This document shows, in pieces, positions 7,968-32,000 of a DNA stretch of 32,000 nucleotides. The stretch comes from an uncultured candidate division Zixibacteria bacterium. Lineage in GTDB: Bacteria > Zixibacteria > MSB-5A5 > UBA10806 > 4484-95. Made by a program: the position numbers and the translations under genes. The stretch is from NCBI GenBank assembly GCA_963668625.2, contig CAXXKA010000008.1, forward strand, positions 1,007,747 through 1,039,746. The letters run 5' to 3'. Under the pieces are notes generated by a model. That model did not search any database and had not been told where the DNA came from. It saw nothing but the letters and a program-made list of their open reading frames with translations. Numbering within the stretch: the first letter of the stretch is position 1; every line of letters begins with the position of its first letter.

Positions 7968-8016
7968 AGGAATCATAATCCTCGTGTCCGGGGTTTGAGT
8001 CCCTGCTCCGCTACTT
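7968..8016 (+). repeat. Orphan copy of the 3' half of the tRNA(CAT) gene (att-like direct repeat of 21842-21890)
   Basis: aggaatcataatcctcgtgtccggggtttgagtccctgctccgctactt matches 21842-21890 at 47/49. Both differences fall in the T-loop (ttcaag versus tttgag). No 5' half of a tRNA lies upstream. Confidence 0.8.
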
Positions 8017-8164: not shown

Positions 8165-8794
8165 ATGGGTAAAATACAGGATATTATTGATCCAGATTTT
8201 CCCAAACAAACAGGAGTTGAAAACAGGTATAAGATAATTGACCAGCCGTTTGTCAATGAGGTTGGCCTATTTAAACAAGCCATCAATATTGGTGAATTCG
8301 GATGGTATTTTATACAATTTCCCGAGAAAACGGTCTTTCAAAAATTAATTGTCCAGCCAGGCGAATTGGATATGGATTTATATATAAGCCGCGATAATAA
8401 TTGCCTGCTATATAGCTTCTATAACTCAAGTACCAATAAAATAACAATCACAGGAAAAATTGTCCCAGATACTCGATCAATATACTCAAAAATTAAAGAT
8501 AACATAGATGACCTCGAGTTGCGGCAATACTATTTGAATTCCAGCCTTGCGAAAACAATTGAGGCCGAACAAATGGCAGAATCTGTTCCTGAGTTGATGA
8601 ACATGGAAGAAGCAGCCAGATATCTCGGAATTGAGGAAAAGACATTGTACAACTGGGTTAGTGCTGAAAAAATACCAGTGACTAAAGTTGGCGGCAGGAA
8701 TAAATTCCGTAAGGAATTTCTCGATAACTGGTTGGATCAACAAACCGGCGTAAAGGGGAAAAAGCGACTGGCAAAGCGCCGCAGAAGGAAATAA
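8165..8794 (+). CDS. Hypothetical protein with C-terminal excisionase-type (HTH_17/MerR-like) DNA-binding domain and basic tail
   Basis: MEEAARYLGIEEKTLYNWVSAEKIPVTKVGGRNKFRKEFLDNWL fits the excisionase/AlpA-like wHTH pattern. The tail is KGKKRLAKRRRRK. The N-terminal ~140 aa are unrecognised and the start codon is uncertain. Confidence 0.6.
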   Translation: MGKIQDIIDPDFPKQTGVENRYKIIDQPFVNEVGLFKQAINIGEFGWYFIQFPEKTVFQKLIVQPGELDMDLYISRDNNCLLYSFYNSSTNKITITGKIVPDTRSIYSKIKDNIDDLELRQYYLNSSLAKTIEAEQMAESVPELMNMEEAARYLGIEEKTLYNWVSAEKIPVTKVGGRNKFRKEFLDNWLDQQTGVKGKKRLAKRRRRK

Positions 8795-8933
8795 CATGTG
8801 CCAGATTTGTGCAAAAAGGGGTATGAAAACGGGTGAAATTCAAGGAAAACCAAGGAAACAATAAAAGTCCATAAATAGCCGTAAGATGTTATCCTGCAGT
8901 GTAATACGTTGGTTTTTAAGGGAAATAAAAAAG

Positions 8934-9008
8934 CGGGGTTGACGAGACTCGAACTCGCGACCTCCTGCGTGACAGGCAGGCGTTCTAACCAAACTGAACT
9001 ACAACCCC
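8934..9008 (-). tRNA. tRNA-Asp (anticodon GTC)
   Basis: The reverse complement folds as a cloverleaf: GGGGTTG TA GTTC AGTTTGGTTA GAAC G CCTGC CTGTCAC GCAGG AGGTC GCGAG TTCGAGT CTCGT CAACCCC G. It is 75 nt and closely resembles bacterial tRNA-Asp. Confidence 0.95.
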
Positions 9009-9414: not shown

Positions 9415-10758
9415 CTATTCGGGTTTCCCTCGCGCGGAAATCAGCCTTAATATCAAGTCCAGATCTTCCCGCCCTAAGCCCTTTGACAGGATCAACACTA
9501 ATAGAAATGACAACGCTCCACAGACTATTCTCAGCAATACCTGCAAGTTTTCTGATAGAACGAGCACTAAAGTCATTGCCACAAGCGCTGGAATCAGTTT
9601 TAACAACCAGCGTAATACCTTACTGATACTCAGGTTATGACCAATCATCACGAAAAAGCCAACGCCTGTTAGAGCCTCCGAAATAAGGGTGGCTATAGCA
9701 GCCCCCTGAAAACTATACCGGGGTATAAAAATGAAATTAAGCCCGATATTAAGTACTGCCCCGACCGCAGTTATATACATCAGGGAGCGTTTCCAGTTAC
9801 TGGCGATCATATATGAACTCTGTATAGAATTAATGAACATCAGCACCAGAGCCCAGATAAGTATTTTCAGCGAGATAACACCCGGCAAATACGATTCCGG
9901 GTATACCATCTCATATAGCGAACCGGCGATAAAGACCGTACCGAGAGCCACGGCCAGGCCCAAATACATCAGATATTTGAAACCGATACGGTATATGTTG
10001 TTCATGCTGGTTTTATCAGCATTGAAATATCCCGAAAGCCTGGGCAATATCGCAGCTGAAAACGAAGTCGATACCATCAACATGCCGTTAATAAGCGCGT
10101 AAGCCGAGTTATAATAACCAACTGCCTGATCGCCTTTCATTAATGACAACATGACAAAGTCGGCGCGATAATAGATTGTCATCAAAACGGCCGTAACAGC
10201 CAGCGGCAAAGCCGATTTGACGAAAGCAACCGGCTCGGTCAAACCGACTTGGAAAGATAAACGGCATACCCTCACGTTAACTACTATCGCGATGGTCAGT
10301 GTAGCTATCGTGGCGCTAACGAGATGAGCAACACCTATGCCAAGCAAACCATAGCCTAATATCAGCGCCGTAAACCCCAGCAGTGTCAGCATGAGCTGGG
10401 TGAGCATGGCCAGCATACCGTAGAGGCGGAAACGCTCATAGCCCAATAAAGTCGCAGAGAAACCGCCCATCATGAAATTTACCCCCATAGCCATAGCAGC
10501 GAATCGCATGAACTGTTTTACGGTATCCGGTTTATTTATATAGTATGATAATGCGAATGCGATACCAACAACGATCACTATGGTAAACAGCCGGGCTATA
10601 ATCGAGCTGCCGATTAGCCTGCCGACCTCGGTTTTATCTTTTATGAATGCAATTTGCCGGGATTGATATGTATTTAGGCCCTTATCGGAAATTACCGCCA
10701 GAAGAACCAACAGCGAGAGAACGAAACCATACTGACCGAACACCTCCACCCCGAGCAC
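9415..10758 (-). CDS. Wzx-like (MOP superfamily) polysaccharide flippase; N-terminal ~37 codons lie in another frame across an A9 run (reconstructed gene 9415..10868)
   Basis: Multi-TM protein with the flippase-like ...ARVLGVEVFGQYGFVLSL... motif. The upstream frame from GTG 10868 encodes NDVGGKSSLARNSIILLSSQIVIKLLGFF, a typical flippase N-terminus. That frame is lost at the homopolymer 10777-10785. Confidence 0.8.
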   Translation of the reverse strand: MLGVEVFGQYGFVLSLLVLLAVISDKGLNTYQSRQIAFIKDKTEVGRLIGSSIIARLFTIVIVVGIAFALSYYINKPDTVKQFMRFAAMAMGVNFMMGGFSATLLGYERFRLYGMLAMLTQLMLTLLGFTALILGYGLLGIGVAHLVSATIATLTIAIVVNVRVCRLSFQVGLTEPVAFVKSALPLAVTAVLMTIYYRADFVMLSLMKGDQAVGYYNSAYALINGMLMVSTSFSAAILPRLSGYFNADKTSMNNIYRIGFKYLMYLGLAVALGTVFIAGSLYEMVYPESYLPGVISLKILIWALVLMFINSIQSSYMIASNWKRSLMYITAVGAVLNIGLNFIFIPRYSFQGAAIATLISEALTGVGFFVMIGHNLSISKVLRWLLKLIPALVAMTLVLVLSENLQVLLRIVCGALSFLLVLILSKGLGREDLDLILRLISARGKPE

Positions 10759-16042: not shown

Positions 16043-17308
16043 CACTAGTGTCCGGGCTTTGAGGCTGGCTTGACAGACCTCCTATAATAAGGGTGTAAAC
16101 GCTAATTATAACACCTTTGTTTACAGGAGGTTAAAAATGCAAGGGAAGGTTACAATACTTCGCCAGATAACGCAAATGATTTCTCGATACGATTTCCAAA
16201 AAGCAGTTTCGACTGGCAAAGGGCGGCATTTCACGGTTTCTTTCGGCTACTGGTCGCACCTGGTGGCGATGATATTCGGGCAATTATCGGAGCAGCAATC
16301 GCTGCGTGATCTGGTCTTGAATCTTTCCCGTCAGGCGCATAGGTTTTACCATCTGGGTATGTCAAAGATACGCCGTTCGACTTTTTCGGATGCCAACAAT
16401 CATCGGCCCTCGGCAATATACGAGAACTTGTTTTACATATTATTGAATCGTTACGGTTGTCATTTTCAAGGCAAAAACCGGAAGCTGGGGAATAAATTAT
16501 ACTCAGTTGATTCGACGGTCATAGATTTGTGTCTGGGGTTATTTTATTGGGCTAAATTCAGAACGACCAAGGCCGGTGTCAAGCTTCATGTCAGGTTAAA
16601 CCATGATGGTTACATCCCTGATTTTGCGGTTGTCACCAATGCCAATATTCATGATTCCAGAGTCAGGAAGATGTTCAATTTACCGGCTGGCAGTATCGTG
16701 ACTTTCGACAAAGGCTACAATGACTACAGTCTTTTCAAGTTATTAAATGATAAGGGGATAATCTTTGTCACGCGGCAGAAGAATAACGCTAAATACAAAG
16801 TAATCAAACGGTGTAGAACTAATCGTAAGCAAGGAGTCACCTCCGATCATTGGATTGAATTTACCGGTTTTTACTCCAAGCAAAAATGTTCGATTAGGCT
16901 GAGACGAATCCGTTATATCGATAAAGAAACCGGTAAAGTTTATGTATTCCTGACCAATGATTTCAAACATGCCGCCTCGACTATTGCCGACATTTATAAG
17001 CAGCGCTGGCAGATAGAATTGTTTTTTAAAGCGTTAAAACAGAACCTTGTGATCAAGACTTTCTGGGGTACCTCCAAGAACGCAGTATATTCCCAGATCT
17101 GGGTGGCTTTGATAATCTATTTGTTAATGAGCGCGCTGAAATACAAATACAAAATATCGGCCTCAGTTGGAAAGTTAATTCAGAGAATCCGGTCATTCGT
17201 GTTTGAAAAAGATGATGTCCTGAGATTCCTTAAAGACCAAATACCAATCCCAATACAAATCGCTCAAACATCTCAAATTAACCTGTCCCTAAAGGCCGGA
17301 CACTAGTG
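16043..17308 (+). mobile_element. IS4-family insertion sequence (1266 bp) with 22-bp terminal inverted repeats and a 9-bp target site duplication
   Basis: Left end CACTAGTGTCCGGGCTTTGAGG, right end (reverse complement) CACTAGTGTCCGGCCTTTAGGG, 19/22 identical. The direct repeat ATTTAGTTT lies at 16034-16042 and 17309-17317. Confidence 0.92.
16137..17306 (+). CDS. IS4-family DDE transposase
   Basis: 389 aa with a DDE_Tnp_1-like core (VDSTVIDL..., FDKGYNDY...) and the IS4 Y-x2-R-x3-E-x6-K signature (YKQRWQIELFFKALKQ). The ORF ends inside the right IR. Confidence 0.9.
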   Translation: MQGKVTILRQITQMISRYDFQKAVSTGKGRHFTVSFGYWSHLVAMIFGQLSEQQSLRDLVLNLSRQAHRFYHLGMSKIRRSTFSDANNHRPSAIYENLFYILLNRYGCHFQGKNRKLGNKLYSVDSTVIDLCLGLFYWAKFRTTKAGVKLHVRLNHDGYIPDFAVVTNANIHDSRVRKMFNLPAGSIVTFDKGYNDYSLFKLLNDKGIIFVTRQKNNAKYKVIKRCRTNRKQGVTSDHWIEFTGFYSKQKCSIRLRRIRYIDKETGKVYVFLTNDFKHAASTIADIYKQRWQIELFFKALKQNLVIKTFWGTSKNAVYSQIWVALIIYLLMSALKYKYKISASVGKLIQRIRSFVFEKDDVLRFLKDQIPIPIQIAQTSQINLSLKAGH

Positions 17309-21813: not shown

Positions 21814-21887
21814 GGCGGAGTAGCTCAGTCGGTTAGAGCAGAGGAATCATAATCCTCGTGTCCGGGGTTCAAGTCCCTGCTCCGCTA
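21814..21887 (+). tRNA. tRNA with CAT anticodon (elongator Met, or Ile2 if lysidine-modified); integration target
   Basis: Cloverleaf: GGCGGAG TA GCTC AGTCGGTTA GAGC A GAGGA ATCATAA TCCTC GTGTC CGGGG TTCAAGT CCCTG CTCCGCT A. It is 74 nt with no encoded CCA. The anticodon stem lacks the three G-C pairs of initiator tRNA. Confidence 0.93.
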
Positions 21888-21986
21888 CTTTTTATCTTGC
21901 TGAACGACAATATGTTATAGGCCTCCTTCTTCAGGTTGGATTTATCACTTTTTATCCCACGGTAACATAGCGGTAACAAAATAGCT

Positions 21987-22043: not shown

Positions 22044-23099
22044 CTAATACGGGAGTTTACTTAGCATTTCGTCTTTGTGATCAGGTGCCAAATGTGAGTA
22101 TATCATTGTCGTCTCAATCTGGGCATGTCCAAGAAGCTTTTGCAACGTGAATATTGGCACATTAACCATTGCCAAATGGCTGGCAAACGTATGCCTGAAT
22201 GTATGGCATGTAGCCCACGGCAGGCCTATCGAAGTGAGAGTCTTTGATATGAATCTGCCTACCCACCATTCTCGCCACTGCGGTTGCTCCTTGCCATGGC
22301 TATCAAATGGCCCAAACACTTTACCATCGCTTCTTCGCTTCATCGATTTCAACATGTCCCGAAGTCCCGGTGAGTACTTGAATGGTAGTATACGATTACG
22401 TTTACCCTTGGCATTGATCCCTCTTATGACAAGCTGGTTTCTTTTAAAATCGATATCGTCCCAGGTTAACGAAAGCGCTTCACCTAACCGTGTTCCAGTA
22501 CCCAGATAGAAATCAACTAACTCCGCAAAGGATGTATCCTTAAATTTATCCTTCACCCTGCTGATCTCTTCCAAGCTCAGGTATCGTGGGTACTCTGACT
22601 GCGGCACTCTAATGTACCGGATTTTATCTAACGGGTTTTTATCCAGCATCTCCCATCGGACAGCTGTATTAAATGCAACTTTCAGATGACGGAATTCGAG
22701 GTTTACGGTTGATGGCGCAATTCCATTATCTAATCTGTGTTTCCGATAGTTCTCCATCGTCAAAGGCCGTATCGAACGGATTTCCTTATTACCAACAAAT
22801 TCAAGCAAATGCTGAAGTATTCTACGTTCACGTATTACCGTACGTGGTGCCTTCACCTGATTTGAATGATCCAAATACTCATCGATAAACTGACTCAACT
22901 TTATAACCTCATCATTCGACTCAATTGGTTTTCCCTCAGCCAATAGAGAGCAAACTTGATGAAAGACTTTATCAGCGGTACGTTTATCACAATTGCCGAT
23001 TTTAAAGGTTTTCTGCACACCATTCTCCCAATAAAAGATCCGCCAACAGTGCTTACCAGATTTATACTTCCGCTTAACCAGAGAAGGCACCTCAATCAC
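22044..23099 (-). CDS. int: Tyrosine site-specific recombinase (phage-type integrase)
   Basis: Catalytic signature: GTGTRLGEAL (Arg), HTFRHTFASHL (H-x-x-R), LLGHAQIETTMIYSHL (His and Tyr). It lies next to a tRNA gene. Confidence 0.93.
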   Translation of the reverse strand: MIEVPSLVKRKYKSGKHCWRIFYWENGVQKTFKIGNCDKRTADKVFHQVCSLLAEGKPIESNDEVIKLSQFIDEYLDHSNQVKAPRTVIRERRILQHLLEFVGNKEIRSIRPLTMENYRKHRLDNGIAPSTVNLEFRHLKVAFNTAVRWEMLDKNPLDKIRYIRVPQSEYPRYLSLEEISRVKDKFKDTSFAELVDFYLGTGTRLGEALSLTWDDIDFKRNQLVIRGINAKGKRNRILPFKYSPGLRDMLKSMKRRSDGKVFGPFDSHGKEQPQWREWWVGRFISKTLTSIGLPWATCHTFRHTFASHLAMVNVPIFTLQKLLGHAQIETTMIYSHLAPDHKDEMLSKLPY

Positions 23100-23322
23100 C
23101 TCCTTTCGATCTCATAGGATAGCTTACAGTTATTTTCTCTTCGCATGATTTTACGTATTCAGTAACCTGGCCCCAGGTAAACTGAACAGAGTTACGGCTA
23201 AAGCGTGTACACGCGATCTTGCCTGATTTGACCCAGCGCAGCACTGTATTACGATGTACGCTGAGAGCCTCGGCTACCTCGTTTACCGTTTTAGTCAATT
23301 TGCCATCGGGCCAGGTGTTCAT
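23092..23322 (-). CDS. xis: Excisionase/AlpA-like HTH DNA-binding protein
   Basis: VNEVAEALSVHRNTVLRWVKSGKIACTRF fits an HTH_17-type motif. It is 76 aa and its stop overlaps the int start by 8 nt. Confidence 0.8.
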   Translation of the reverse strand: MNTWPDGKLTKTVNEVAEALSVHRNTVLRWVKSGKIACTRFSRNSVQFTWGQVTEYVKSCEEKITVSYPMRSKGGD

Positions 23323-23389
23323 TTTTCTTATACCTAAAAAATTACCTCCCGGTCATCATGGTAAATGACTGGGAGGATTTATAAAACGC

Positions 23390-23869
23390 CTATCCTTTTA
23401 AGCGATTGTCCTCATCGGAATCGTGGTTATCTTCATCGTCTGACACAATTTGATTTGCCCGAAATAGAAATTCATGGGCTTTAGCTACATGATCAGCGAG
23501 ATTTCTATACCCCGAAATGGCAATATCAAACATTCGCTTTAATTCTGCTGGCTGATTTTCCCCGCTTTGGGATAGTACAACACCAAGATGATTTATGAAT
23601 TCATGCCGAGTGTCAAAAAAGCCAGTCGCAACACTTACATAATCATAAGCATCGCTTGGAGAATCACTATTATTGGCTTTGTCCTTTAATCCGCCTAGGA
23701 ATTCTCCTATATCATAGTCGTATTTGGGGAAATCGATGAACTGCACTCCTTCAACAACTATCAGCGCATCTGCTCTCTTGATCGAATCCAGTACATGATT
23801 ATAGCAATCATTGCAGATATCTGGATTACAGAAGTAGTCGCGAACTAAAATTAAATTATCTGTATTCAT
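23390..23869 (-). CDS. Hypothetical acidic protein (159 aa), island cargo
   Basis: Long ORF in the same orientation as its neighbours, with no recognisable family. It is very D/E-rich with an acidic tail (SDDEDNHDSDEDN). Residues 31-50 resemble residues 38-57 of the 176-aa protein. Confidence 0.6.
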   Translation of the reverse strand: MNTDNLILVRDYFCNPDICNDCYNHVLDSIKRADALIVVEGVQFIDFPKYDYDIGEFLGGLKDKANNSDSPSDAYDYVSVATGFFDTRHEFINHLGVVLSQSGENQPAELKRMFDIAISGYRNLADHVAKAHEFLFRANQIVSDDEDNHDSDEDNRLKG

Positions 23870-23961
23870 TTAAAATACCTTTCCTGGTTTGTTTTCCTGC
23901 GCCAGCTAGAAAGATGGCACAGGTAGGTTAATACTAATGCTGTTAGTTTCTAGGCGACCCT

Positions 23962-24921
23962 TTACATTCCATCGTCAGCCATTATGATGATAGCGTCCAG
24001 GGTATAGCTATAAATCGCGCGGAAGCAATCAATGGCATTTCCCCATAATCTTTCAAAATATTCGTCGCTCAAACTATCATCATTAAGAAATTGATATTCT
24101 ACTATATACAGCAGTAGCATTGTCCAGATAGAGAGGTACCGGAATGATAAGAAGGTATAATCTCCTAAGGTTTTTTTTGAACGAAGTACACCGGCCCTCA
24201 AGCGAAGATGTTCCAGATCGTTCAAAACATACGTTAGGAACCCGAGAGAAAGCACCCACTTATTACCTTTAGCCTCGATAATAATATCCTGTTCAACCAT
24301 GGCTTGATACCGCTGCTTTACTTCCGGACCACCCTGTAAAAGCCCGTTGAATGCATCCAGCGGAATTGCTAAGGCAGGAGGGTCATCATCTTCAAGAAAC
24401 TTCTTTTTATCGAAGTCCTCTCCCGGTGGAATCTTTAAAATTAATTCCATTTCCTCAAGCACAACATCTTTCGTCCCTGGGGCGTTAATCCCAAACGCTA
24501 TTTCCAGCGCATTTAGAAGGTGTTTGAAAATATTATGGAAGTAAGGCAGATGGGCTTTTAATAGAAGTCGATTTGCCTCAACTGCATCTTCGGTGTCAGC
24601 CGTAGTGTTAGAAAAGTCGAATGATGTCAGATAGTTAAACCAAGAACGCAGATAGCTTAGAGATGTTTTGGCATAACAAACCCTATCTTCGTATGTAGGC
24701 TCAGCGTCATTAGAGGTATACCTATCCAGTTCATTCTCAACATACTCCCCTAATTTGGGGGCCGAGACGAATTCTTCCGAGCCAACCTCAAATATCAGGC
24801 CATTTTCAATTAATGCCTGGCGGAGGTCATTTAAATCGGCATTTTTCCAGCCGAGCTTTTCAGTAAATAGTCTCAAGGCTGCCGGAAATTCGTTTGTATT
24901 AGAGTTATTCATGTTTATCAC
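23962..24921 (-). CDS. Hypothetical protein (319 aa), island cargo
   Basis: Long ORF with no recognisable motif. It has a hydrophobic stretch near the C-terminus (FLSFRYLSIWTMLLLYIVEY). The start could be 24921 or 24912. Confidence 0.6.
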   Translation of the reverse strand: MINMNNSNTNEFPAALRLFTEKLGWKNADLNDLRQALIENGLIFEVGSEEFVSAPKLGEYVENELDRYTSNDAEPTYEDRVCYAKTSLSYLRSWFNYLTSFDFSNTTADTEDAVEANRLLLKAHLPYFHNIFKHLLNALEIAFGINAPGTKDVVLEEMELILKIPPGEDFDKKKFLEDDDPPALAIPLDAFNGLLQGGPEVKQRYQAMVEQDIIIEAKGNKWVLSLGFLTYVLNDLEHLRLRAGVLRSKKTLGDYTFLSFRYLSIWTMLLLYIVEYQFLNDDSLSDEYFERLWGNAIDCFRAIYSYTLDAIIIMADDGM

Positions 24922-24977
24922 TTTATTGTTTTGCCCGCAGCCGGATAGAACGGCGATGCGGGCGGGTTAACATTTTG

Positions 24978-25508
24978 CTAATCTTCAGACTCTGTGTCTG
25001 AATCAGCGTTGTCTACACCGGCTTTTATGCCGAGCTCTTTCAGCCGTTTCTCGACTTTTTCCAATGTTATTTTGTTTGAATCAATCATTACAGGCAGATT
25101 ATCCTGACGCTCTTTGAGTTTCCTTTTCTTCTCAGGATCAGGTTCAGTCGCTATTATTTCAGGAAGATTCTGAAGCTCAGATTCATGTTCAGCATTTAGG
25201 CGTGTCAGTCGAGTAAACTGGCCACGAAGAATGCCTGGATTGTCAGTGGTTTCTATAGTGGTACGGGATGACGGATTAGCTTTTTCGGCTTGGCGTTTAT
25301 CTTTATCGATTTTCTGGAGTTCCTTGTTTTTCTCTAGGAATTCAGGGACATCGATATAGAAAACACCACCGACATTAATTAGGGAATCACATCTTCGAGC
25401 CTGGCGAGTCAGCTTCTTAAGATCAGCGCCAATCATTTCGGCATAGGCTGAGAGAAGCATATTGTCGCCAAAAACTAATCCGATATTTAATTTGCTATCG
25501 TTTGACAT
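24978..25508 (-). CDS. Hypothetical protein (176 aa) with N-terminal excisionase-like wHTH, charged coiled region and acidic tail
   Basis: SAYAEMIGADLKKLTRQARRCDSLINVGGVFYIDVPEFLEK follows the same helix-turn-helix plus wing pattern as the two HTH_17 proteins in this window. The tail is DNADSDTESED. GGAGGAAAAG lies upstream of the ATG. Confidence 0.6.
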   Translation of the reverse strand: MSNDSKLNIGLVFGDNMLLSAYAEMIGADLKKLTRQARRCDSLINVGGVFYIDVPEFLEKNKELQKIDKDKRQAEKANPSSRTTIETTDNPGILRGQFTRLTRLNAEHESELQNLPEIIATEPDPEKKRKLKERQDNLPVMIDSNKITLEKVEKRLKELGIKAGVDNADSDTESED

Positions 25509-25866
25509 TTCTTTTCCTCCTTTCCTACCGTTGATAAAATCAACCGCAATTTTAAAAACGGATTATTTATGTTAGCGATTTTAAACGATCGATTGATGCC
25601 AGTTAGCATTGGCTCGTTTTTGGTAGTTATTAAGATTTTGCCCAATTAAACACAGCGTATTGGGTTCGCTATAATAGTAGGTTGTATGCAACCCTTATGA
25701 ATAAAAAACTGTTTAATTGGTGTGAATATATTTGCTATCTTTATTTAATTCATTGAGTTATAGGTGTCAAATGATTGAGGAATATTGCGGCGAGAAATAA
25801 AAATATCCGAAAATTACCTTAAGGTTGCGTAACCCAAGATAGCTTCAAATTTAGATATAGATTTTT

Positions 25867-26535
25867 TTATATTTCTCTAATTGTTATTTGAAATTTGGGA
25901 ATATAATATCCATGGTCCGACCACTTGTAAAATGGGTCTTCAGTGATTTCAAAGCAATTTTTAAGGACTCCTCTTATTTTTGAAATATTGGATTTAAGAG
26001 TCCCCCGCTTCATTGCATTTTGTATTTTCCTTGCTTTTTTTTCATCAGCAGTAAACATTAAAGTTGCCCACCATTTTCCTATTTTTTCCCCTTTTCCTTT
26101 ACGGAATCCTAATTTAGAGTAATGGACTTTTTTAGTTTTACTACCTGCAATAATACATACCCTTTCATAATTCGAATCAACAATAAATTTTACATTTTGC
26201 CATTTTGATACGTGCGGGAATTTAAGAAATTTTTCTTTTTGCTTTGAAGTTTTAAGTGATAATTTTTCTATATTTCTTGAAATACTTTCGATAATTTCAG
26301 ATTTATCCGAATCAGACAATCTGGTATAAGTTGGGAAGGAATCTTTATTCCATAAGTGATTTACAGAATATTCTAATTGCTGTTTAGATGGAGGATGAAT
26401 ATTTATACCGGCTATTATTCGATTTTTTATTTTTTTTAATATACCCACATTTTCTTGCGCAGCATAGCGTATTGGAACATCTGCTAAATGAAAATGTACA
26501 ACGTTTTTCTTGAAGGAAATTAAATACAAAGGCAA
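25867..26535 (-). CDS. Hypothetical basic protein (222 aa) in AT-rich cargo; 5' end uncertain
   Basis: Long ORF in visibly AT-rich DNA. Its only upstream start is TTG at 26535, and the frame stays open up to the IS3 junction at 26604. No family recognised. Confidence 0.5.
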   Translation of the reverse strand: MPLYLISFKKNVVHFHLADVPIRYAAQENVGILKKIKNRIIAGINIHPPSKQQLEYSVNHLWNKDSFPTYTRLSDSDKSEIIESISRNIEKLSLKTSKQKEKFLKFPHVSKWQNVKFIVDSNYERVCIIAGSKTKKVHYSKLGFRKGKGEKIGKWWATLMFTADEKKARKIQNAMKRGTLKSNISKIRGVLKNCFEITEDPFYKWSDHGYYIPKFQITIREI

Positions 26536-26619
26536 TAATTCATCGGATGTTTTATTTTGTATCGAAGATTTATATGCATCCTCTGTTAGCTTCCCCCCAT
26601 TGTTTGGACAGTAATTTAG

Positions 26620-27498
26620 CTAAAATAAGGTGGAATTTCTAAGTATTAGTCCATTATTTTTCTGTTTAATCGATTCCTTTTTTGAATTTAAATTATAAAC
26701 CTCATAAGGCGTCTTGCCGTTTAAGGCCTGATGGAAACGTTCGGTGTTGTAGAATTCGAAATACCTCTTCAAACCGAGGTAAGCCTCCGCCGGCGTCTGG
26801 TAATCGTGAAGATAAACCTCCTCGTACTTGACCGATCTCCACAGACGCTCGACAAAAATATTGTCAAGATACCGACCGCGACCGTCCATGCTGATAGCGA
26901 TCCGCTTGTCTTGCAGTACACCGGTGAAATCCTTGTCGGTAAACTGTGTTCCCTGATCGCTGTTGAATATCTCCGGCTGTTTGCCATCCAACGATTCCTC
27001 CAATGCCTCCACGCAGAAAGAGCTCTCAAGAGTATTGGACAAACGCCAGGCAAGAACGTAACGCGAGAACCAATCAATCACTGCCGCCAGATAGAGAAAG
27101 CCCCGGCTAAGACGAATATACGTGATATCGGCGCTCCAGACCTGGTCAACATGATCAATCAGGACATCGCGTAAAAGATACGGATATATCTTGTTAGACG
27201 GACAAGGCTTGCTCGTATTTGGTTTAGGGTAAACAGCTTGAAGACCCATAATCCTCATCAGACGTTCAACCCGCTTGTGATTTATATCATATCCCTGAGA
27301 CTTTAGACAGAGTGTCATCTTAGGACTGCCGTAAAACGGGGTCCTGGTATATTGATCGTCAAGCAGACGCATAAGTGTCAGGTTCAAATCGCTTTCCCCA
27401 GTAGGCCGGTAGTAGTAGCTTGAACGGGGAAGCCCCAAAAGCTGGCACTGACGGCTAATTGAAATGTCCGGGTTTGATCGTTCCACCAGATTCCTCAA
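26620..27498 (-). CDS. IS3-family transposase OrfB (rve/DDE integrase core)
   Basis: WSADITYI...NSDQGTQFT...ERLWRSVKYEEVY is typical of IS3 DDE cores. The frame is open upstream to the A-run (TAA AAA AAA GGA...). Confidence 0.9.
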   Translation of the reverse strand: MRNLVERSNPDISISRQCQLLGLPRSSYYYRPTGESDLNLTLMRLLDDQYTRTPFYGSPKMTLCLKSQGYDINHKRVERLMRIMGLQAVYPKPNTSKPCPSNKIYPYLLRDVLIDHVDQVWSADITYIRLSRGFLYLAAVIDWFSRYVLAWRLSNTLESSFCVEALEESLDGKQPEIFNSDQGTQFTDKDFTGVLQDKRIAISMDGRGRYLDNIFVERLWRSVKYEEVYLHDYQTPAEAYLGLKRYFEFYNTERFHQALNGKTPYEVYNLNSKKESIKQKNNGLILRNSTLF

Positions 27499-27502
27499 AT
27501 CC

Positions 27503-27787
27503 TCAGGCGAGACGCCCGCTCCTTTTTTTTAGAAATGCCAACTCCACCTGAAGCTTACCAATCTCCTGATAGAGAGCATCCATCCTGGCTTGCTCATCCT
27601 CCCGCAACTTGGCCTTGCCGTTAGAAAAGGCTTCCGGGAGAGACTGTAAAGCCTGCTTCTTCCACATACCAACCTGATTAGGGTGTACTTCGTATTCCGA
27701 GGCTATCTGATTAACGGTCTTCTGACCGCGAATGGCCTCTATGGCTACTTTTGCTTTAAGCTCCCCGCTGTATCGACTTCGCTTCAT
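27503..27787 (-). CDS. IS3-family transposase OrfA (HTH, leucine-zipper region)
   Basis: MKRSRYSGELKAKVAIEAIRGQKTVNQIASEYEVHPNQVGMWKKQ is a Transposase_8-like HTH. ATG at 27787. Confidence 0.9.
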   Translation of the reverse strand: MKRSRYSGELKAKVAIEAIRGQKTVNQIASEYEVHPNQVGMWKKQALQSLPEAFSNGKAKLREDEQARMDALYQEIGKLQVELAFLKKRSGRLA

Positions 27788-27812
27788 CAATTACCCTTTC
27801 TGGACATTTCTA

Positions 27813-28205
27813 CTAATTTAATACCACCTTAAACAATTGTCCAGTTTTTGGGGGAAACCTCACTGCTTCAGGCCATTTACATAGAAAACCTAATAAAGTA
27901 GCACGAAAAATATTTTTAAGAGCACTGTCATGGCAAGTTATTATTGCTTGATACAAATTAAAATAGATATTCCCTCTATCAATTTTCGCTATATACTTGC
28001 TATAATAGATAGGTAGGGAGTATTTAGTTATTGGAGGGGAAAGAATAATATCAAATAAATTATCTAAATCATCATTAAAATATCCGCGGTACAGCTTAGT
28101 CATATTAAAGTTGGTACATATATTATTTACAGGCTTAATTAATTCCATTCTTCTTTTTTCAGCCCATTTTTCAATATTAAATTCATTTTGCTTATCATTT
28201 TTCAT
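27813..28205 (-). CDS. Hypothetical protein (130 aa) in AT-rich cargo; last 10 codons come from the IS3 end
   Basis: The ORF crosses the IS junction at 27843/27844. Removing the IS gives the native end ...AVRFPPKTMGGS*. No family recognised. Confidence 0.5.
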   Translation of the reverse strand: MKNDKQNEFNIEKWAEKRRMELIKPVNNICTNFNMTKLYRGYFNDDLDNLFDIILSPPITKYSLPIYYSKYIAKIDRGNIYFNLYQAIITCHDSALKNIFRATLLGFLCKWPEAVRFPPKTGQLFKVVLN

Positions 28206-28848: not shown

Positions 28849-29076
28849 ATGAATACCAAAGACATGAATTATGCCGCTTACTTGCTGGCAAACAATCGTA
28901 AATTGGAAAGCTGTTATCCTGACGGACGAAAGTTCTGGTTTGTGTTTCCTGATGACGAGGAAGTAAAATTACTTACCCAAAAGTATTATCTAAATACCGG
29001 GCCAATAAATCCGCAGGACTTTGTAAACGCACAGAAGATATTGAAGAACCTGGTTAGAAACTTTCAACCAGCCTGA
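28849..29076 (+). CDS. Small hypothetical protein (75 aa), possibly DUF5659-like
   Basis: MNYAAYLLANNRKLESCYPDGRKFWFVFPDDEEVKLL...FVNAQKILKNLV matches my recollection of the DUF5659 pattern. It lies immediately upstream of the primase gene. Confidence 0.5.
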   Translation: MNTKDMNYAAYLLANNRKLESCYPDGRKFWFVFPDDEEVKLLTQKYYLNTGPINPQDFVNAQKILKNLVRNFQPA

Positions 29077-29159: not shown

Positions 29160-31667
29160 ATGAAACCACAATCCATAGTAATTTTAATGAATCAAAAACT
29201 TATTCAAGAAGTATTCTCAACATTAAAGAAAGGAGAATTTATCAGGCTTGCCTGGGAAGATGAAAATGAAAAGTTCCATAAGACTGGAACACAAAATTAT
29301 GAACAATTCATATCAAAAGTAGATGAATTAAAATCCTTCCCTTATATTGCTAGTATTTGGTTTACCCCCAATCCCAGCAATTCACCATCATCACATACTC
29401 AGGATGATATTACCCGAGCCCACTGGGTATATGTCGATATTGATGATGTCTCCCCCGAAGAATTCCTACAAAAATACGATTATATCAAACCAACCTATAC
29501 TGTAGCCACCGGCCATGGAGTCCAGCTTTATTGGAAGTTGAAACGCCCCATAGCTATACCTAATGAACAATGGCAAGCCATAGAAAATGCAATAAAACGC
29601 AAATTCCATGGAGAAAAGGGTGAATCATGTTCATTGCTAAGGGTACCTGATACACCAAACCGCAAGCATCTTATTGAGAAGCATAGAAAAAAGGGCTATA
29701 CGGTTGAAACTAAATGTGAAGTCATTGGATTTTGTGATGAAGAATATGATCTTGATGATTTTATCGAAGCAGGTTTGGATATTGATAATCAGCCCACGGA
29801 GATCGTGACAAGCCCTACAGCTAAACGTTCTCTCGATGACCTGAAACGAATACGCCAGTATTGTCCAGCTATAAACGAAGCCTTTTTATCGATAGAAAAT
29901 AACAAAGGTAACGAAAAGACAATCGGTCATTACAAACGCCTGGCAGTAGCCAGCATGATAAAACATACAATCGATGATGAAAAATATCTGTTGAAATTAT
30001 TCAGCAAGGTATCTGATTTTGATCCTCAAAAAACTTTAAAGTATTACAGAAGTCTGGATAAATGGCCTTTTACCTGTGCAAAACTACAGGAAAAAGAACT
30101 ATGTAGTGAAACTTGCCAATTGATGACAGACCTCAACAAAAAAAGTCCTATAGTATTCGCATATCGCTCCGGTGTTCAATTGAAAACTACCGATACCTTA
30201 TTAAATGAAACCGAGAATGATAGTAGTTTCAAAGAGTTGATGAAGCGCGTAAAATCCATTGAAAACCCGGTAAATCAGGAAAAACTGATAAGCAAGGTTA
30301 TTGCCGAAACCGGCATAAACAAATCTTCTATCAACCGTTATATGAAAAAGATCAAAGTTCGAGATGATATTAAATCATACATCGTCAACGGTGAAGTTGA
30401 TCCCGTGAAAGCGGCGATATATATAATCAGGCAATACCAGCTAATGCGATATCAACAGGATTTCTATAAATATCAGGATGGAATATGGGAGCTTATGCCT
30501 CAGGAGGAAGTCGAGTCGTTAATTCATCACGAGATCAAACAGTATTCGGACAACCATACAATAAGCGAGGTCATAAATGCAGTCAAAAGAGAGGCTTTAA
30601 TTAAACCCAACACGGTTGATAAAGCCCAGGGTAAGTATTGGATAGCAGCCAGCAACGGATTATTAGATGCAGAAACGAAAGCTCTTCGCGATTTTACGCA
30701 GGAAGACTACAGGTTCATCAAAATGAACGCGAAATATAATGCGGCAGCTGATTGTCCTGTCTTTAAAGAATTTTTACGCGAGTTGTTCATGTACGACACT
30801 GATGCCGCTGATAAACGTAAACTCGTTCAGGAGATATTCGGCTATCTGCTGATACCCGACTACTCTCTCATAAAGAAGATGTTTTATTTCTACGGGCCGA
30901 AAGCTAACAACGGCAAATCATCGTTAATTGAAATCATACGATCAGTAATGGGGCCAGGGTATTTTGATAGTGTCCCCATGGATAAATTGAATGGATTTTT
31001 ATTGAAACGGCTGCAGGGAAAACATGCTAACGTCGTAGGTGACCAGGATGCGTATACGAAGGTGCCTGACGGCATATTGAAACAATTGATTGGCGGCATG
31101 GATGAAATCACAGCGGATGTGAAATACAAGGACGCTATTACGTTCACTAATTATGCGAGATTGATATTTGCCGTTAATAAACTGCCGTTTTCAGAAGCGA
31201 AAGACGAAGGTTATTTTACCCGAGCCGTAATCCTAACGTTCAATAACCAGTTTTTAATAAATCCTGATCGTAAGGATCACCGGCAAATGAAAGCCGACGT
31301 TGAGAAAATACAATACATAAAGGATAATGAAAAAGAAGGTATTCTCAACTGGATGCTGGAGGGTTTGAGCAGATTGCTGGCAAACAAGAAACTAACGATT
31401 CCCACTTCATCAGAATCAGCTGTGAAGGATTACAAAACAAACAACAACAGTATATTGTTATTTGTTGGCGATAACTGTCAGCTAGGACCTACTTTCCAAG
31501 TGAGTCAATCTGAGTTGTATACGAATTACAGAGGCTGGTGCCAGGACCAGGGATTTAAAGGCTATGCGAATTCGGTCACGTTTTATGATTTGCTTGAGAG
31601 GGAGTACAAGGTTGTTCGACAGAGAACCAAAAATTCACGACGTCTTGTAGGAATTAAATTAACCTGA
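29160..31667 (+). CDS. Bifunctional primase-polymerase (AEP prim-pol) / SF3 helicase (P4 alpha / D5 family) replication protein
   Basis: N-terminus: VYVDIDD, TGHGVQLYWKL and LLRVPDTPNRKH (AEP catalytic motifs). C-terminus: Walker A FYGPKANNGKSS, then GKHANVVGDQDAY...LKQLIGGMDEITADVKYKDAITFTNYARLIFAVNKLP...FTRAVILTFNNQF, matching the P4-family primase C-terminal domain. Confidence 0.9.
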   Translation: MKPQSIVILMNQKLIQEVFSTLKKGEFIRLAWEDENEKFHKTGTQNYEQFISKVDELKSFPYIASIWFTPNPSNSPSSHTQDDITRAHWVYVDIDDVSPEEFLQKYDYIKPTYTVATGHGVQLYWKLKRPIAIPNEQWQAIENAIKRKFHGEKGESCSLLRVPDTPNRKHLIEKHRKKGYTVETKCEVIGFCDEEYDLDDFIEAGLDIDNQPTEIVTSPTAKRSLDDLKRIRQYCPAINEAFLSIENNKGNEKTIGHYKRLAVASMIKHTIDDEKYLLKLFSKVSDFDPQKTLKYYRSLDKWPFTCAKLQEKELCSETCQLMTDLNKKSPIVFAYRSGVQLKTTDTLLNETENDSSFKELMKRVKSIENPVNQEKLISKVIAETGINKSSINRYMKKIKVRDDIKSYIVNGEVDPVKAAIYIIRQYQLMRYQQDFYKYQDGIWELMPQEEVESLIHHEIKQYSDNHTISEVINAVKREALIKPNTVDKAQGKYWIAASNGLLDAETKALRDFTQEDYRFIKMNAKYNAAADCPVFKEFLRELFMYDTDAADKRKLVQEIFGYLLIPDYSLIKKMFYFYGPKANNGKSSLIEIIRSVMGPGYFDSVPMDKLNGFLLKRLQGKHANVVGDQDAYTKVPDGILKQLIGGMDEITADVKYKDAITFTNYARLIFAVNKLPFSEAKDEGYFTRAVILTFNNQFLINPDRKDHRQMKADVEKIQYIKDNEKEGILNWMLEGLSRLLANKKLTIPTSSESAVKDYKTNNNSILLFVGDNCQLGPTFQVSQSELYTNYRGWCQDQGFKGYANSVTFYDLLEREYKVVRQRTKNSRRLVGIKLT

Positions 31668-31670
31668 TTT

Positions 31671-31904
31671 TGTCACCTTTGTCACCCTCTGTCACCGCGT
31701 AAGTCTATGTGTATCAACAGAGATGACAAAATGACAAGAAAATAGCCTAAAAAAGTTTTACAGGGAAAAAATAAAAAAATTTTGTAAATGAAAATAGTTT
31801 TTAAACCGTAATTTAACATCGTTTTGTCACCCGACCAGCTAACCAGTTATGTATTATTAAGATAAGGGAGTTGGGATGGGTGACAAACGATGACAAAGGT
31901 GACA
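31671..31904. repeat. Iteron field: TGTCACC repeats in both orientations flanking an AT-rich segment (putative origin of replication)
   Basis: Forward TGTCACC at 31671, 31680, 31690 and 31825. Reverse GGTGACA at 31879 and 31898, with degenerate (A/G)ATGACA at 31723, 31731 and 31890. An A/T-rich stretch spans 31741-31820. The field begins 4 nt after the primase-helicase stop. Confidence 0.75.
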
Positions 31905-32000
31905 AAATAATTACCATGACATACAGAAAGAAATTCATTCCTCATATAAATCTGAGGAAAGCATTACATCATCCAAGATTGGACACCATCGAAGCAGAAC

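Follow-up and report, generated by a model that had tools for sequence, protein, structure and literature searches.

The window examined here is a stretch of 32,000 nucleotides from an uncultured candidate division Zixibacteria bacterium (assembly GCA_963668625.2, contig CAXXKA010000008.1, positions 1,007,747 to 1,039,746). At positions 23390-25508 it carries three genes on the minus strand, encoding proteins of 176, 319 and 159 amino acids (aa) that we call w176, w319 and w159, beside the excisionase (xis) and integrase (int) genes of an integrated island. A first-pass annotation of this DNA had described them as a leftward operon of proteins that match no nameable family, and its three co-oriented open reading frames (ORFs), with gaps of 56 and 92 nt, were all recovered. 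The 176-aa gene (24978-25508) is recognised from its ORF, Shine-Dalgarno sequence (SD), homologues and AlphaFold2 (AF2) model; the 319-aa gene (23962-24921) from its ORF, its homologue P0002, its AF2 model and a module profile; and the 159-aa gene (23390-23869) from its ORF, homologues, substitution ratios and charge. We find here no three-component system but one example of a tandem array of paralogues whose composition varies: a conserved leader (w176) is followed by a covalent tandem duplication of one protein module (w319) and by a single module (w159).

Homologues of the same length as the window proteins were found in independent metagenomes, six for w176 (69-75% identity) and six for w159 (55-68%), while w319 has one relative, P0002, at 43% identity. 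The ratio of non-synonymous to synonymous substitution rates (dN/dS) is 0.16-0.22 for the 159 family and 0.08-0.25 for the 176 family, with synonymous sites near saturation. Because length-conserved homologues occur in independent metagenomes and dN/dS lies at 0.08-0.25, the array genes are real and under purifying selection. For the 319-aa gene the likelier start codon is the ATG at 24912, since the resulting 316-aa form is the entry in the protein database and P0002 begins with the same MNNSNTNEF. The superfamily is rare: when 1.84 billion cluster representatives were searched exhaustively with HMMER and a profile of the 159 and 319 proteins, 35 clusters were returned at E ≤ 1e-3, mostly of 143-182 aa with a few of 305-324 aa. 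Its median isoelectric point (pI) is 4.9, and 25 of 32 representatives fall below 6. The strong acidity ascribed to the 159-aa protein in the first-pass annotation was borne out (pI 4.46, net charge -16); w319 has a pI of 4.53 and a net charge of -22, and w176 a pI of 5.30.

Runs of tandem ORFs of about 150-180 aa are present in the related loci (L001-L011), and we therefore used profiles to test for paralogy. A module profile was built from 34 single-module sequences only, with w319 and its close relatives left out. In hmmsearch it matched w319 twice and nearly over its full length each time, at residues 9-151 (P = 1.9e-20, profile positions 4-147 of 159, window positions 24469-24897, minus strand) and at residues 186-311 (P = 1.8e-12, profile positions 9-135, window positions 23989-24366, minus strand). 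Double matches were also obtained with other members of about 310 aa (P0002, P0018, P0021 and P0034), and P0026 is a stand-alone protein resembling the C-terminal half of w319. All other ORFs of the window scored P ≥ 0.03 against this profile, with the true excisionase (Xis) at 0.17. The 176 family was matched at residues 27-78 (P = 8e-5 to 2e-6), and hhalign aligned the 176 family to the modules in the same register (P = 8.7e-4 and 2.9e-4), a register with which BLASTP agrees. With type-B relatives (L004_4875, L007_662 and L008_274) added, the hhalign comparison reached P = 1.3e-5 at a probability of 81% over 171 columns. On these profile matches we regard the homology of the 159 and 319 proteins as established and that of the 176 protein to the module family as probable. 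The 159-aa protein accordingly reads as one module and the 319-aa protein as two modules fused head to tail, and w176 as a diverged, far better conserved family member that always stands first in the array. An N-terminal segment shared by w176 and w159 had already been noticed, with 10 of 20 residues identical without gaps (RRCDSLINVGGVFYIDVPEF and KRADALIVVEGVQFIDFPKY). BLASTP reproduces this match with a pairwise E of 5e-4, so that the sharing stands, but its restriction to two members does not, as all three proteins have the segment.

In the AF2 model of w319 (predicted template modelling score, pTM, 0.71; mean predicted local distance difference test score, pLDDT, 69) the first repeat comprises helices at residues 14-22 and 30-39, strands at 43-46 and 49-52, and helices at 54-70, 77-99 and 111-142. 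The second comprises helices at 188-191 and 199-210, strands at 214-217 and 220-224, and helices at 225-246, 249-280 and 286-317, and a disordered acidic linker (residues 146-182) joins the two. The module, of about 150 aa, is predicted to be built of two helices, a beta-hairpin and three long helices, and its N-terminal part takes an excisionase/MerR-type winged-helix topology in the w319 model, where pLDDT is about 50-85. The hydrophobic stretch reported earlier near the C-terminus of the 319-aa protein lies within the second module; it is present, but is modelled as the bundle core helix 249-280 (pLDDT 86-90). A membrane anchor was rejected, as the AF2 model makes the stretch a buried bundle helix that matches the equivalent helix of the N-terminal half. 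The model also suggests that the two halves of w319 pack together, because its pTM is high for two domains on a disordered linker; single modules would then be dimers. For w176 (mean pLDDT 68) the model leaves the N-terminus poorly defined, with helices at 19-26 and 30-38, followed by an antiparallel helical hairpin at residues 91-158 with pLDDT above 90 and by a disordered acidic tail, the tail having been pointed out in the first reading. Foldseek comparison of AlphaFold models, which had been proposed as a check, was run for w319 against PDB and BFVD and for w176 against PDB and gave no significant fold neighbour at E ≤ 0.001, the best match (E = 0.17) being to generic helical bundles. Only generic helical hairpins were found for w176. 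Foldseek matches to PadR, AphA, FadR, phage HTH and Excise folds all had E > 1, the local matches to phage HTH and Excise being weak at E 2.1-2.5.

The first-pass annotation had further read the N-terminal segment of the 176-aa protein as following the excisionase/HTH_17 pattern. A predicted winged helix-turn-helix (wHTH)-like topology is retained from this proposal, but membership of HTH_17 is not. None of w176, w319 and w159 matched PF12728 or TIGR01764 at E ≤ 1, no HTH_17 match was seen among 36 superfamily members at E ≤ 0.1, and in hhalign comparisons with the elements' own Xis family the 176 family reached P = 0.024 and the modules 0.48. Net charge over the wHTH-like segment averages -2.9 across 49 modules, of which 12 are positive there; the modules of the window carry -4, -3 and -1. 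The Xis proteins of the same elements carry +4 to +7.

The columns conserved across the superfamily are those of the hydrophobic core, a helix cap and the pair Tyr77/His127, and conservation does not extend to the putative recognition surface. Only the 176 family has retained a basic helix 2 that is invariant (ADLKKLTRQARRCD). The same family has a near-invariant Ser/Thr-rich motif at residues 79-103 (SSRxTIETTxxPGILRGQxTRLTRLN), between the N-terminal segment and the helical hairpin, of which the part SSRxTIETTxxPGILRGQ is invariant; this motif matches basic helix 2 in conservation and may serve in an interaction. Three cysteines in the HTH-like turn of the 159 subfamily (Cys14, Cys19 and Cys22, in YFCNPDICxDCY) are invariant, as are His89, His94 and His127, and this cluster may form a subfamily-specific metal site. 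Different Cys/His-rich inserts, such as HHDVCGEGC, occupy the same site in other subfamilies. A metal site as a feature of the whole family was dropped, the Cys/His cluster of the 159 subfamily not being conserved across the superfamily.

To compare gene order, ORFs of the related loci were classified with profiles of the module, 176, 350 and 104-aa families and with the integrase and Xis of the window. The window reads 350 (interrupted by an IS3-family element), 176, 319 (two modules), 159, xis and int. L001 and L010 have 350, 176 (frameshifted), one module, xis and int, and L005 and L006 have 435, 176, one module, 104, xis and int. L007 has a type-B 176 gene, four modules and 104; L008 a type-B 176 gene, one module, 104 and xis; and L011 a 350 fragment, 176 and one module. 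L003 reads 411, 176, an unrelated CxxCxxCC protein, xis and int. The contig ends after 176 and a type-B 176 gene in L004, and after 176 in L002. The 176 family is present in all nine related elements, and the number of modules varies from none (L003) to four, with varying types. Co-conservation of the three genes had been made the measure of their novelty. What recurs is the order from 176 family through one or more modules to xis and int, in six of the seven elements with this region visible, but the trio does not recur gene by gene: the exact combination is unique to the window, and the 319-aa type was seen there only. Paralogues within one array, which are old, share 12-33% identity, and modules of the same type in different elements share 83% (162-aa type) or 55-62% (159-aa type). 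Where the superfamily's surroundings were seen, they belong to a single lineage of tRNA-integrating islands with an integrase, an HTH_17 Xis, DUF5659, a D5/DUF5906 primase and an iteron origin.

Several related loci have features of their own. At L003 3917-4678 the unrelated 253-aa CxxCxxCC (PF03692) protein lies between the 176 gene and xis in place of modules, and the slot is therefore exchangeable. In L001, which is one element with L009 and L010, the 176-family gene (10001-10528) is predicted at a length of 97 or 111 aa, while tblastn shows 70% identity over all 176 residues; a frameshift, a stop or an error of assembly must therefore lie in it. An orphan family of about 103 aa, absent from the window, extends between the last module and xis at L005 3130-3444, L007 3479-3763 and L008 1463-1771 (41-57% identity). 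The 176-family homologue of L005/L006, P0008, is deposited under a 'Candidatus Hodarchaeales archaeon' metagenome-assembled genome and bears the JGI name V-type ATPase subunit. Both labels look like binning or annotation artefacts, because the contig is 5 kb long and the host of the window is clearly bacterial, with sorting domains of the type IX secretion system (T9SS), AlaRS and UvrD.

The intergenic DNA of the array is also conserved. Alignment of six upstream regions revealed a leader box with the consensus ATCGTTCAGAAT at 25578-25589 (minus strand), about 82 nt upstream of the 176 start, and the same spacing to the start of the 176-family gene is found in L001, L002, L005 and L011. Behind the box, ATCGTT(C/T)(A/G)(A/G)AAT, come TAAC and a hairpin that differs in strength between loci; in the window this region covers 25560-25600. 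The window has a single copy of the box, as does each of five related elements, mostly at an unchanged distance from the gene. We consider the box a candidate promoter or leader signal of the 176-led unit. A dispersed operator was rejected, the box occurring once per element, as was a structured leader RNA upstream of the 176 gene, the hairpin being strong in some loci and weak in the window. The 176 gene itself has a strong SD, GGAAAGGAGG. As the conserved leader box and the SD lie close upstream of the 176 gene, the array is probably expressible despite the IS3-family element upstream.

GC-rich stem-loops occupy nearly every intergenic gap of the array in all loci, with z-scores of -3 to -6 in most. 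Directly after the 176 gene of the window (24926-24972, minus strand) lies a type-1 stem-loop, TTAAC-GCCCGC...GCCG-loop-CGGC...GCGGGC, with a folding z of -3.4 to -3.75. The type-1 consensus, TTTAAC-GCCCGG...GCCG-loop-CGGC...CCGGGC, is found after 176-family genes and some module genes. A covariance model, R1, placed type-1 copies after every 176-family gene with visible downstream DNA, among them two copies from outside the training set (L011 1654-1700 and L002 8150-8198), and found a single copy, on the gene strand, in the 32-kb window. Conservation of type 1 is mostly at the level of sequence, with compensatory change at three pairs, and Rfam returned for this hairpin only a sub-threshold match on the opposite strand to DUF2693-FD RNA (24.2 bits against a gathering score of 44.5 bits). 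Folding also places a GC-rich stem-loop in the gap between the 319 and 159 genes (23896-23923, minus strand), followed by the SD of the 159-aa gene, AGGAAAGG. Between the 159-aa gene and xis an intrinsic-terminator-like stem-loop, CCTCCCAGTCAT...ATGACCGGGAGG then TAATTTTTT, lies at 23335-23376 (minus strand; folding z of -2.8 to -3.8). This type 2, with an A-tract, stem and U-tract, follows the last module in the window, L001, L005, L007 and L008. The earlier view of the three genes as one unit fits the leader box and strong SD upstream, the hairpins between the genes and the terminator-like hairpin before xis. The hairpins may act in attenuation or transcript stabilisation, as protein-binding sites or as cassette boundaries. 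An integron attC identity was rejected: a TTTAAC-like 5' box is present in most copies, but no complementary GTTRRRY (R') follows 3' of the stem.

The island that carries the array has its left end at its integration target, a tRNA-Met (CAT) gene at 21814-21888 (plus strand; ARAGORN, Rfam), at whose 3' end it has integrated. The tyrosine integrase follows at 22044-23099 (minus strand; PF00589 E = 1e-23; L001 and L005 homologues at E about 1e-101), with a strong terminator behind it, and the HTH_17 excisionase gene xis at 23092-23322 (minus strand; PF12728 E = 8e-9, TIGR01764 E = 3e-9) overlaps int by 8 nt and encodes a basic protein of pI 9.56. On the other side of the array, the supposed AT-rich cargo of the first-pass annotation proved to be something else, a conserved backbone gene of about 350 aa (350fam) that stands before the 176 gene in related elements and is split here by an IS3-family element. 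A 222-aa ORF at 25867-26535 (minus strand) is its C-terminal part, with a profile match and 44% identity to residues 202-344 of the L001 350-aa protein. The IS3-family element, with approximate ends at 26584-27862 (minus strand; orfA 27503-27790, orfB 26620-27498), was recognised from Pfam HTH_Tnp_1 and rve and imperfect terminal inverted repeats; no clean target-site duplication was found at its ends. A 130-aa ORF at 27813-28205 (minus strand) is probably the N-terminal part of the split gene, as judged by a frame-compatible reconstruction, its own sequence similarity not being significant. Removal of the IS3-family element in silico restored a 350fam ORF of 349-358 aa.

A divergent rightward unit begins with a DUF5659 gene at 28849-29076 (plus strand; PF18903 E = 1.8e-8, 34.6 bits against a cut-off of 23.6 bits), which holds the same position in L001/L010 and L003. 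The next gene, at 29160-31667 (plus strand), encodes a P4/D5-type primase-helicase with D5_N, DUF5906 and Pox_D5 regions (TIGR01613 E = 6e-51; Pfam, PHROGs). At 31667-31908 lies an iteron-type replication origin in which exact copies of TGTCACC, six in all, flank an A/T-rich core; three direct copies precede this core, and one further direct copy and two in inverted orientation follow it, besides TGTCATC variants. The window as a whole contains 12 TGTCACC copies against 2.0 expected, and six of these lie within 234 bp. No capsid or packaging genes were found in the visible element, and no second copy of the tRNA-Met 3' end was found downstream within the window. The host genes of the window encode T9SS-sorted proteins, a bacterial AlaRS and UvrD. 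Elsewhere in the window a 23-nt copy of the tRNA-Met 3' end with 2 mismatches lies at 7992-8014 (plus strand), 13.8 kb upstream of the intact tRNA, and is followed by a gene for a 209-aa protein with a C-terminal HTH_17 (8165-8794) and a tRNA-Asp gene (8933-9008). It may be the scar of another integration; its orientation is at odds with the present island. A second transposase (DDE_Tnp_1 with DUF4372) is encoded at 16137-17306 (plus strand), in a low-GC stretch between housekeeping genes.

Database searches agree with the first description of the three proteins as unrecognisable. Pfam, PHROGs, PADLOC, NCBIfam and PDB sequences gave no significant match to w176, w319 or w159 (best E 0.039-0.47, under the curated cut-offs where these are set), Pfam gave nothing significant across 36 superfamily members, and PDB sequences gave no match to single proteins or to profiles. 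Pfam and PHROGs likewise returned nothing for the conserved neighbour proteins of the array. The 176 and 319 families are both absent from GTDB species genomes. In IMG/VR contigs we found no member of the 176 family, no relative of the element's primase and no relatives of the array families, and the array families were absent from all 44 IMG/VR loci with distantly related viral integrases (566 kb). The sole match among JGI metagenome contigs was the already known L001 contig, and tblastn searches of annotated collections gave no match to w176 among phages or to w319 among phages and plasmids. The suggestion that acidic proteins such as these are DNA mimics or anti-restriction factors found no support in sequence or fold similarity to known mimics (Pfam, PHROGs, and Foldseek against PDB and BFVD). 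Nor was any known defence system matched in PADLOC-DB, whose defence profiles gave no family for w176, w319 or w159 at E ≤ 1. The further idea of a regulatory and interference module stays plausible.

Several known systems resemble the array or its element in part. With HTH_17/AlpA/MerR-type proteins (PF12728, TIGR01764) the modules share a predicted N-terminal topology of helix-turn-helix, beta-hairpin wing and a further helix, the hydrophobic register resembles the HTH_17 pattern, and the array adjoins a tyrosine integrase. The array proteins differ in being 2-4 times longer, in their three-helix bundle and in their pI (4.5-5.3 against 9.6 for Xis); moreover, they have no profile match, and a genuine HTH_17 Xis is already encoded in the same operon. 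The element belongs to the known int-AlpA-primase islands. Phage-inducible chromosomal minimalist islands (PICMI) have a core of integrase, HTH_17 Xis/AlpA and DUF5906/DUF3987 primase with variable small genes of unknown function between them (PMC10803314). Our island has the same core within 9.6 kb (PF00589, PF12728, and PF19263 together with D5_N and Pox_D5). It also shares with these satellites the position of the tyrosine integrase at a conserved site in the chromosome, the overlap or close juxtaposition of the HTH_17 Xis gene and int, and variable unknown small genes between the core genes. The iterons of the ori and crr regions of satellite P4 are TGTTCACC, which the TGTCACC iterons beside the primase gene of the island resemble. 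Unlike these PICMI and P4-like satellites, the island shows no integration next to fis, sid, psu, delta and capsid-redirecting genes are not visible in the window, and those satellites have no described counterpart of the array, the 350-aa gene or the hairpins behind each gene.

Other likenesses concern the proteins and their arrangement. ArdA, Ocr and lambda Gam are acidic DNA-mimic or anti-defence proteins, and AcrIIA1 is an anti-CRISPR protein with an HTH and a helical domain. Like them, the array proteins are small, strongly acidic, largely helical and, as modelled, probably dimeric, and the array lies in an early or leading unit, diversifies fast and varies in copy number; neither sequence nor fold is similar, however, and the likeness is one of composition and context only. 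P4 delta is a covalent duplication of an Ogr-like transactivator, Ogr and delta being Cys4 zinc-finger proteins. Single-domain and head-to-tail fused double forms occur there as in w159 and w319, which by analogy would imply a dimer as the working unit, although the fold is unrelated and the gene position different, so that the analogy covers the evolutionary pattern only. As in integron cassettes, the array genes are tandem and co-oriented, hairpins follow nearly every one of them and a tyrosine recombinase gene lies at the end of the array, but the inverted pair of attC, R'' (RYYYAAC) and R' (GTTRRRY), was not found. The gene family is undescribed and rare, and new features are the paralogue array of wHTH-derived modules, the fused double and the near-universal per-gene hairpin.

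There is good support for the anatomy of the locus: next to the xis-int genes of a satellite-type island stands a conserved leader gene with a variable array of paralogues, one of them a fused double. As to function, we tentatively favour one reading, in which the 176 protein is the core component and regulates by binding nucleic acid, the acidic modules serve as accessory factors that bind proteins as dimers, and the hairpins grade or gate transcription, although we hold it with something less than even confidence. The 176-aa protein would be a dimeric regulator of the leftward unit, acting through its basic helix (ADLKKLTRQARRCD) and its coiled-coil hairpin; it is favoured for this role because it is present in every related locus, its basic helix is invariant and a coiled-coil hairpin suits dimerisation. 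The acidic modules would have lost DNA binding and would act as dimers, the fused 319-aa form being a covalent dimer. They are favoured as accessory factors with diversified protein-binding surfaces because their number is variable and can be zero, their wHTH-like segment is negative, and a conserved core is combined with a variable surface. Such diversified surfaces would account for the differences between elements in module number (0-4) and type, each type being conserved in itself. Transcription along the array, and onward into xis-int, would be graded or gated by the hairpins. Several points weigh against this reading. The partners of the modules (host, helper-phage or defence proteins) are putative only, the array proteins have no homologue of known function in the libraries searched, and dimerisation of the modules is suggested solely by the fused forms and a pTM value. 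With a pLDDT of 30-59 at the N-terminus of w176, its wHTH is deduced only through homology to the modules. DNA binding is poorly predicted by net charge, the wHTH-like segment is positive in 12 of the 49 modules, and many modules have in helix 2 a partly conserved [KR]-R-Q motif that could still contact DNA. In addition, about 30 other family clusters lie outside the gene-order comparison, and the island is visible only to the end of the window, 330 nt past the primase gene, with its right-hand remainder beyond.

The main rival to this reading, which we consider doubtful, is that all three proteins are DNA-binding accessories for recombination directionality or transcription that work with Xis and the integrase. 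Small Xis-like proteins or extra ORFs take part in the excision of CTnDOT of Bacteroides (Xis2c, Xis2d, Orf3 and Exc) and of NBU1 (Orf2, Orf2x, Orf3 and PrmN1), and the T9SS-bearing host of the island presumably belongs to the Fibrobacteres-Chlorobi-Bacteroidetes (FCB) group, where multi-protein excision systems are known. The position of the array directly upstream of xis-int in the same orientation in six of seven elements speaks for such a role, as do the wHTH-like topology, the [KR]-R-Q motif in helix 2 of many members, the basic helix 2 of the 176 family and the essential part in excision that genes of unknown function adjoining int play in PICMI satellites (PMC10803314). A core function in excision would not be dispensable, however, whereas the modules vary from none to four, differ in type among homologous elements and are missing from L003. 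The putative DNA-binding segment of the window's modules is net negative and their pI is 4.5, no profile similarity to HTH_17 or Xis was detected, and a terminator-like hairpin separates the array from xis-int. A decidedly unlikely reading makes the stem-loops the key, either as boxB-like RNA targets or attenuators read by the Arg-rich helix of the 176 protein or as boundaries of shuffled gene cassettes. Hairpins do follow nearly every array gene in all loci, the terminal one resembles an intrinsic terminator, and array composition varies among elements; type 1 is specific to the gene strand and the array, has two R1 copies outside the training set, and is conserved in sequence although synonymous sites are saturated. 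Against this, type 1 has no U-tract, compensatory change is seen at just three pairs and there is no attC-like R''/R' pair, while gene duplication that carries the 3' untranslated region along would give the same picture; RNA binding by the 176 protein is purely hypothetical.

Two further readings assign the array to other stages of the life of a satellite. Lambda gpNu1 has an N-terminal wHTH, a coiled-coil oligomerisation region and a partner-binding acidic tail, and w176 could be a packaging-specificity protein of the small terminase (TerS) type, with modules that redirect packaging or assembly of a helper phage. The domain order and size of w176, the satellite-type backbone and the frequency of HTH_17-type domains in TerS PHROG families, which appeared among the matches of the window's Xis, are consistent with this. 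It is nevertheless very unlikely, given that w176 has no TerS profile match in PHROGs or Pfam and no significant fold match, that its gene lies in the excision-proximal unit and not among morphogenesis genes, and that no cos or pac site or capsid genes are visible in the window. The proteins might instead be replication or partition accessories acting at the iteron origin, with the two modules of the 319-aa protein resembling the two winged-helix domains of iteron-binding Rep initiators. Tandem wHTH-like domains, an iteron origin in the element and noise-level wHTH matches to DnaD-like, Phage_rep_O and ORC-CDC6-like families would fit, but those matches are non-significant (E 0.06-0.5), the proteins are acidic, and the primase-helicase has its own C-terminal Pox_D5/RFX-like DNA-binding region. 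With a module number that is variable and can be zero, and with array and origin at opposite ends of the visible element, this reading appears highly improbable.

A bolder reading, speculative and unlikely, would combine the proteins with the hairpins, each paralogue having a conserved 3' stem-loop of its own and elements differing in the units that they carry: either cassettes delimited by hairpins diversify a family of acidic dimeric proteins, derived from a wHTH, that inhibit host, helper-phage or defence proteins, or an N/boxB-like circuit operates in which the Arg-rich helix of the 176 protein reads the hairpins and so gates transcription into the modules and xis-int. If true, either the cassette system or the circuit would give phage-satellite-like islands of uncultured bacteria a regulatory or counter-defence module of a new sort. 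The present analysis delimits a superfamily of about 35 clusters, defines its module and fused double, describes the backbone of the element and records an array-specific stem-loop; for now, this stands as an orphan family in a rare element. In better-studied elements such arrays have often proved to be counter-defence or helper-manipulation factors. If the favoured reading is true, satellite-type islands of uncultured T9SS-bearing bacteria would carry, beside their excision switch, an expandable and fast-diverging set of dimer-forming derivatives of a DNA-binding fold, which would add to the catalogue of counter-defence and helper-manipulation factors and offer a clean case of a wHTH scaffold re-used for protein binding.

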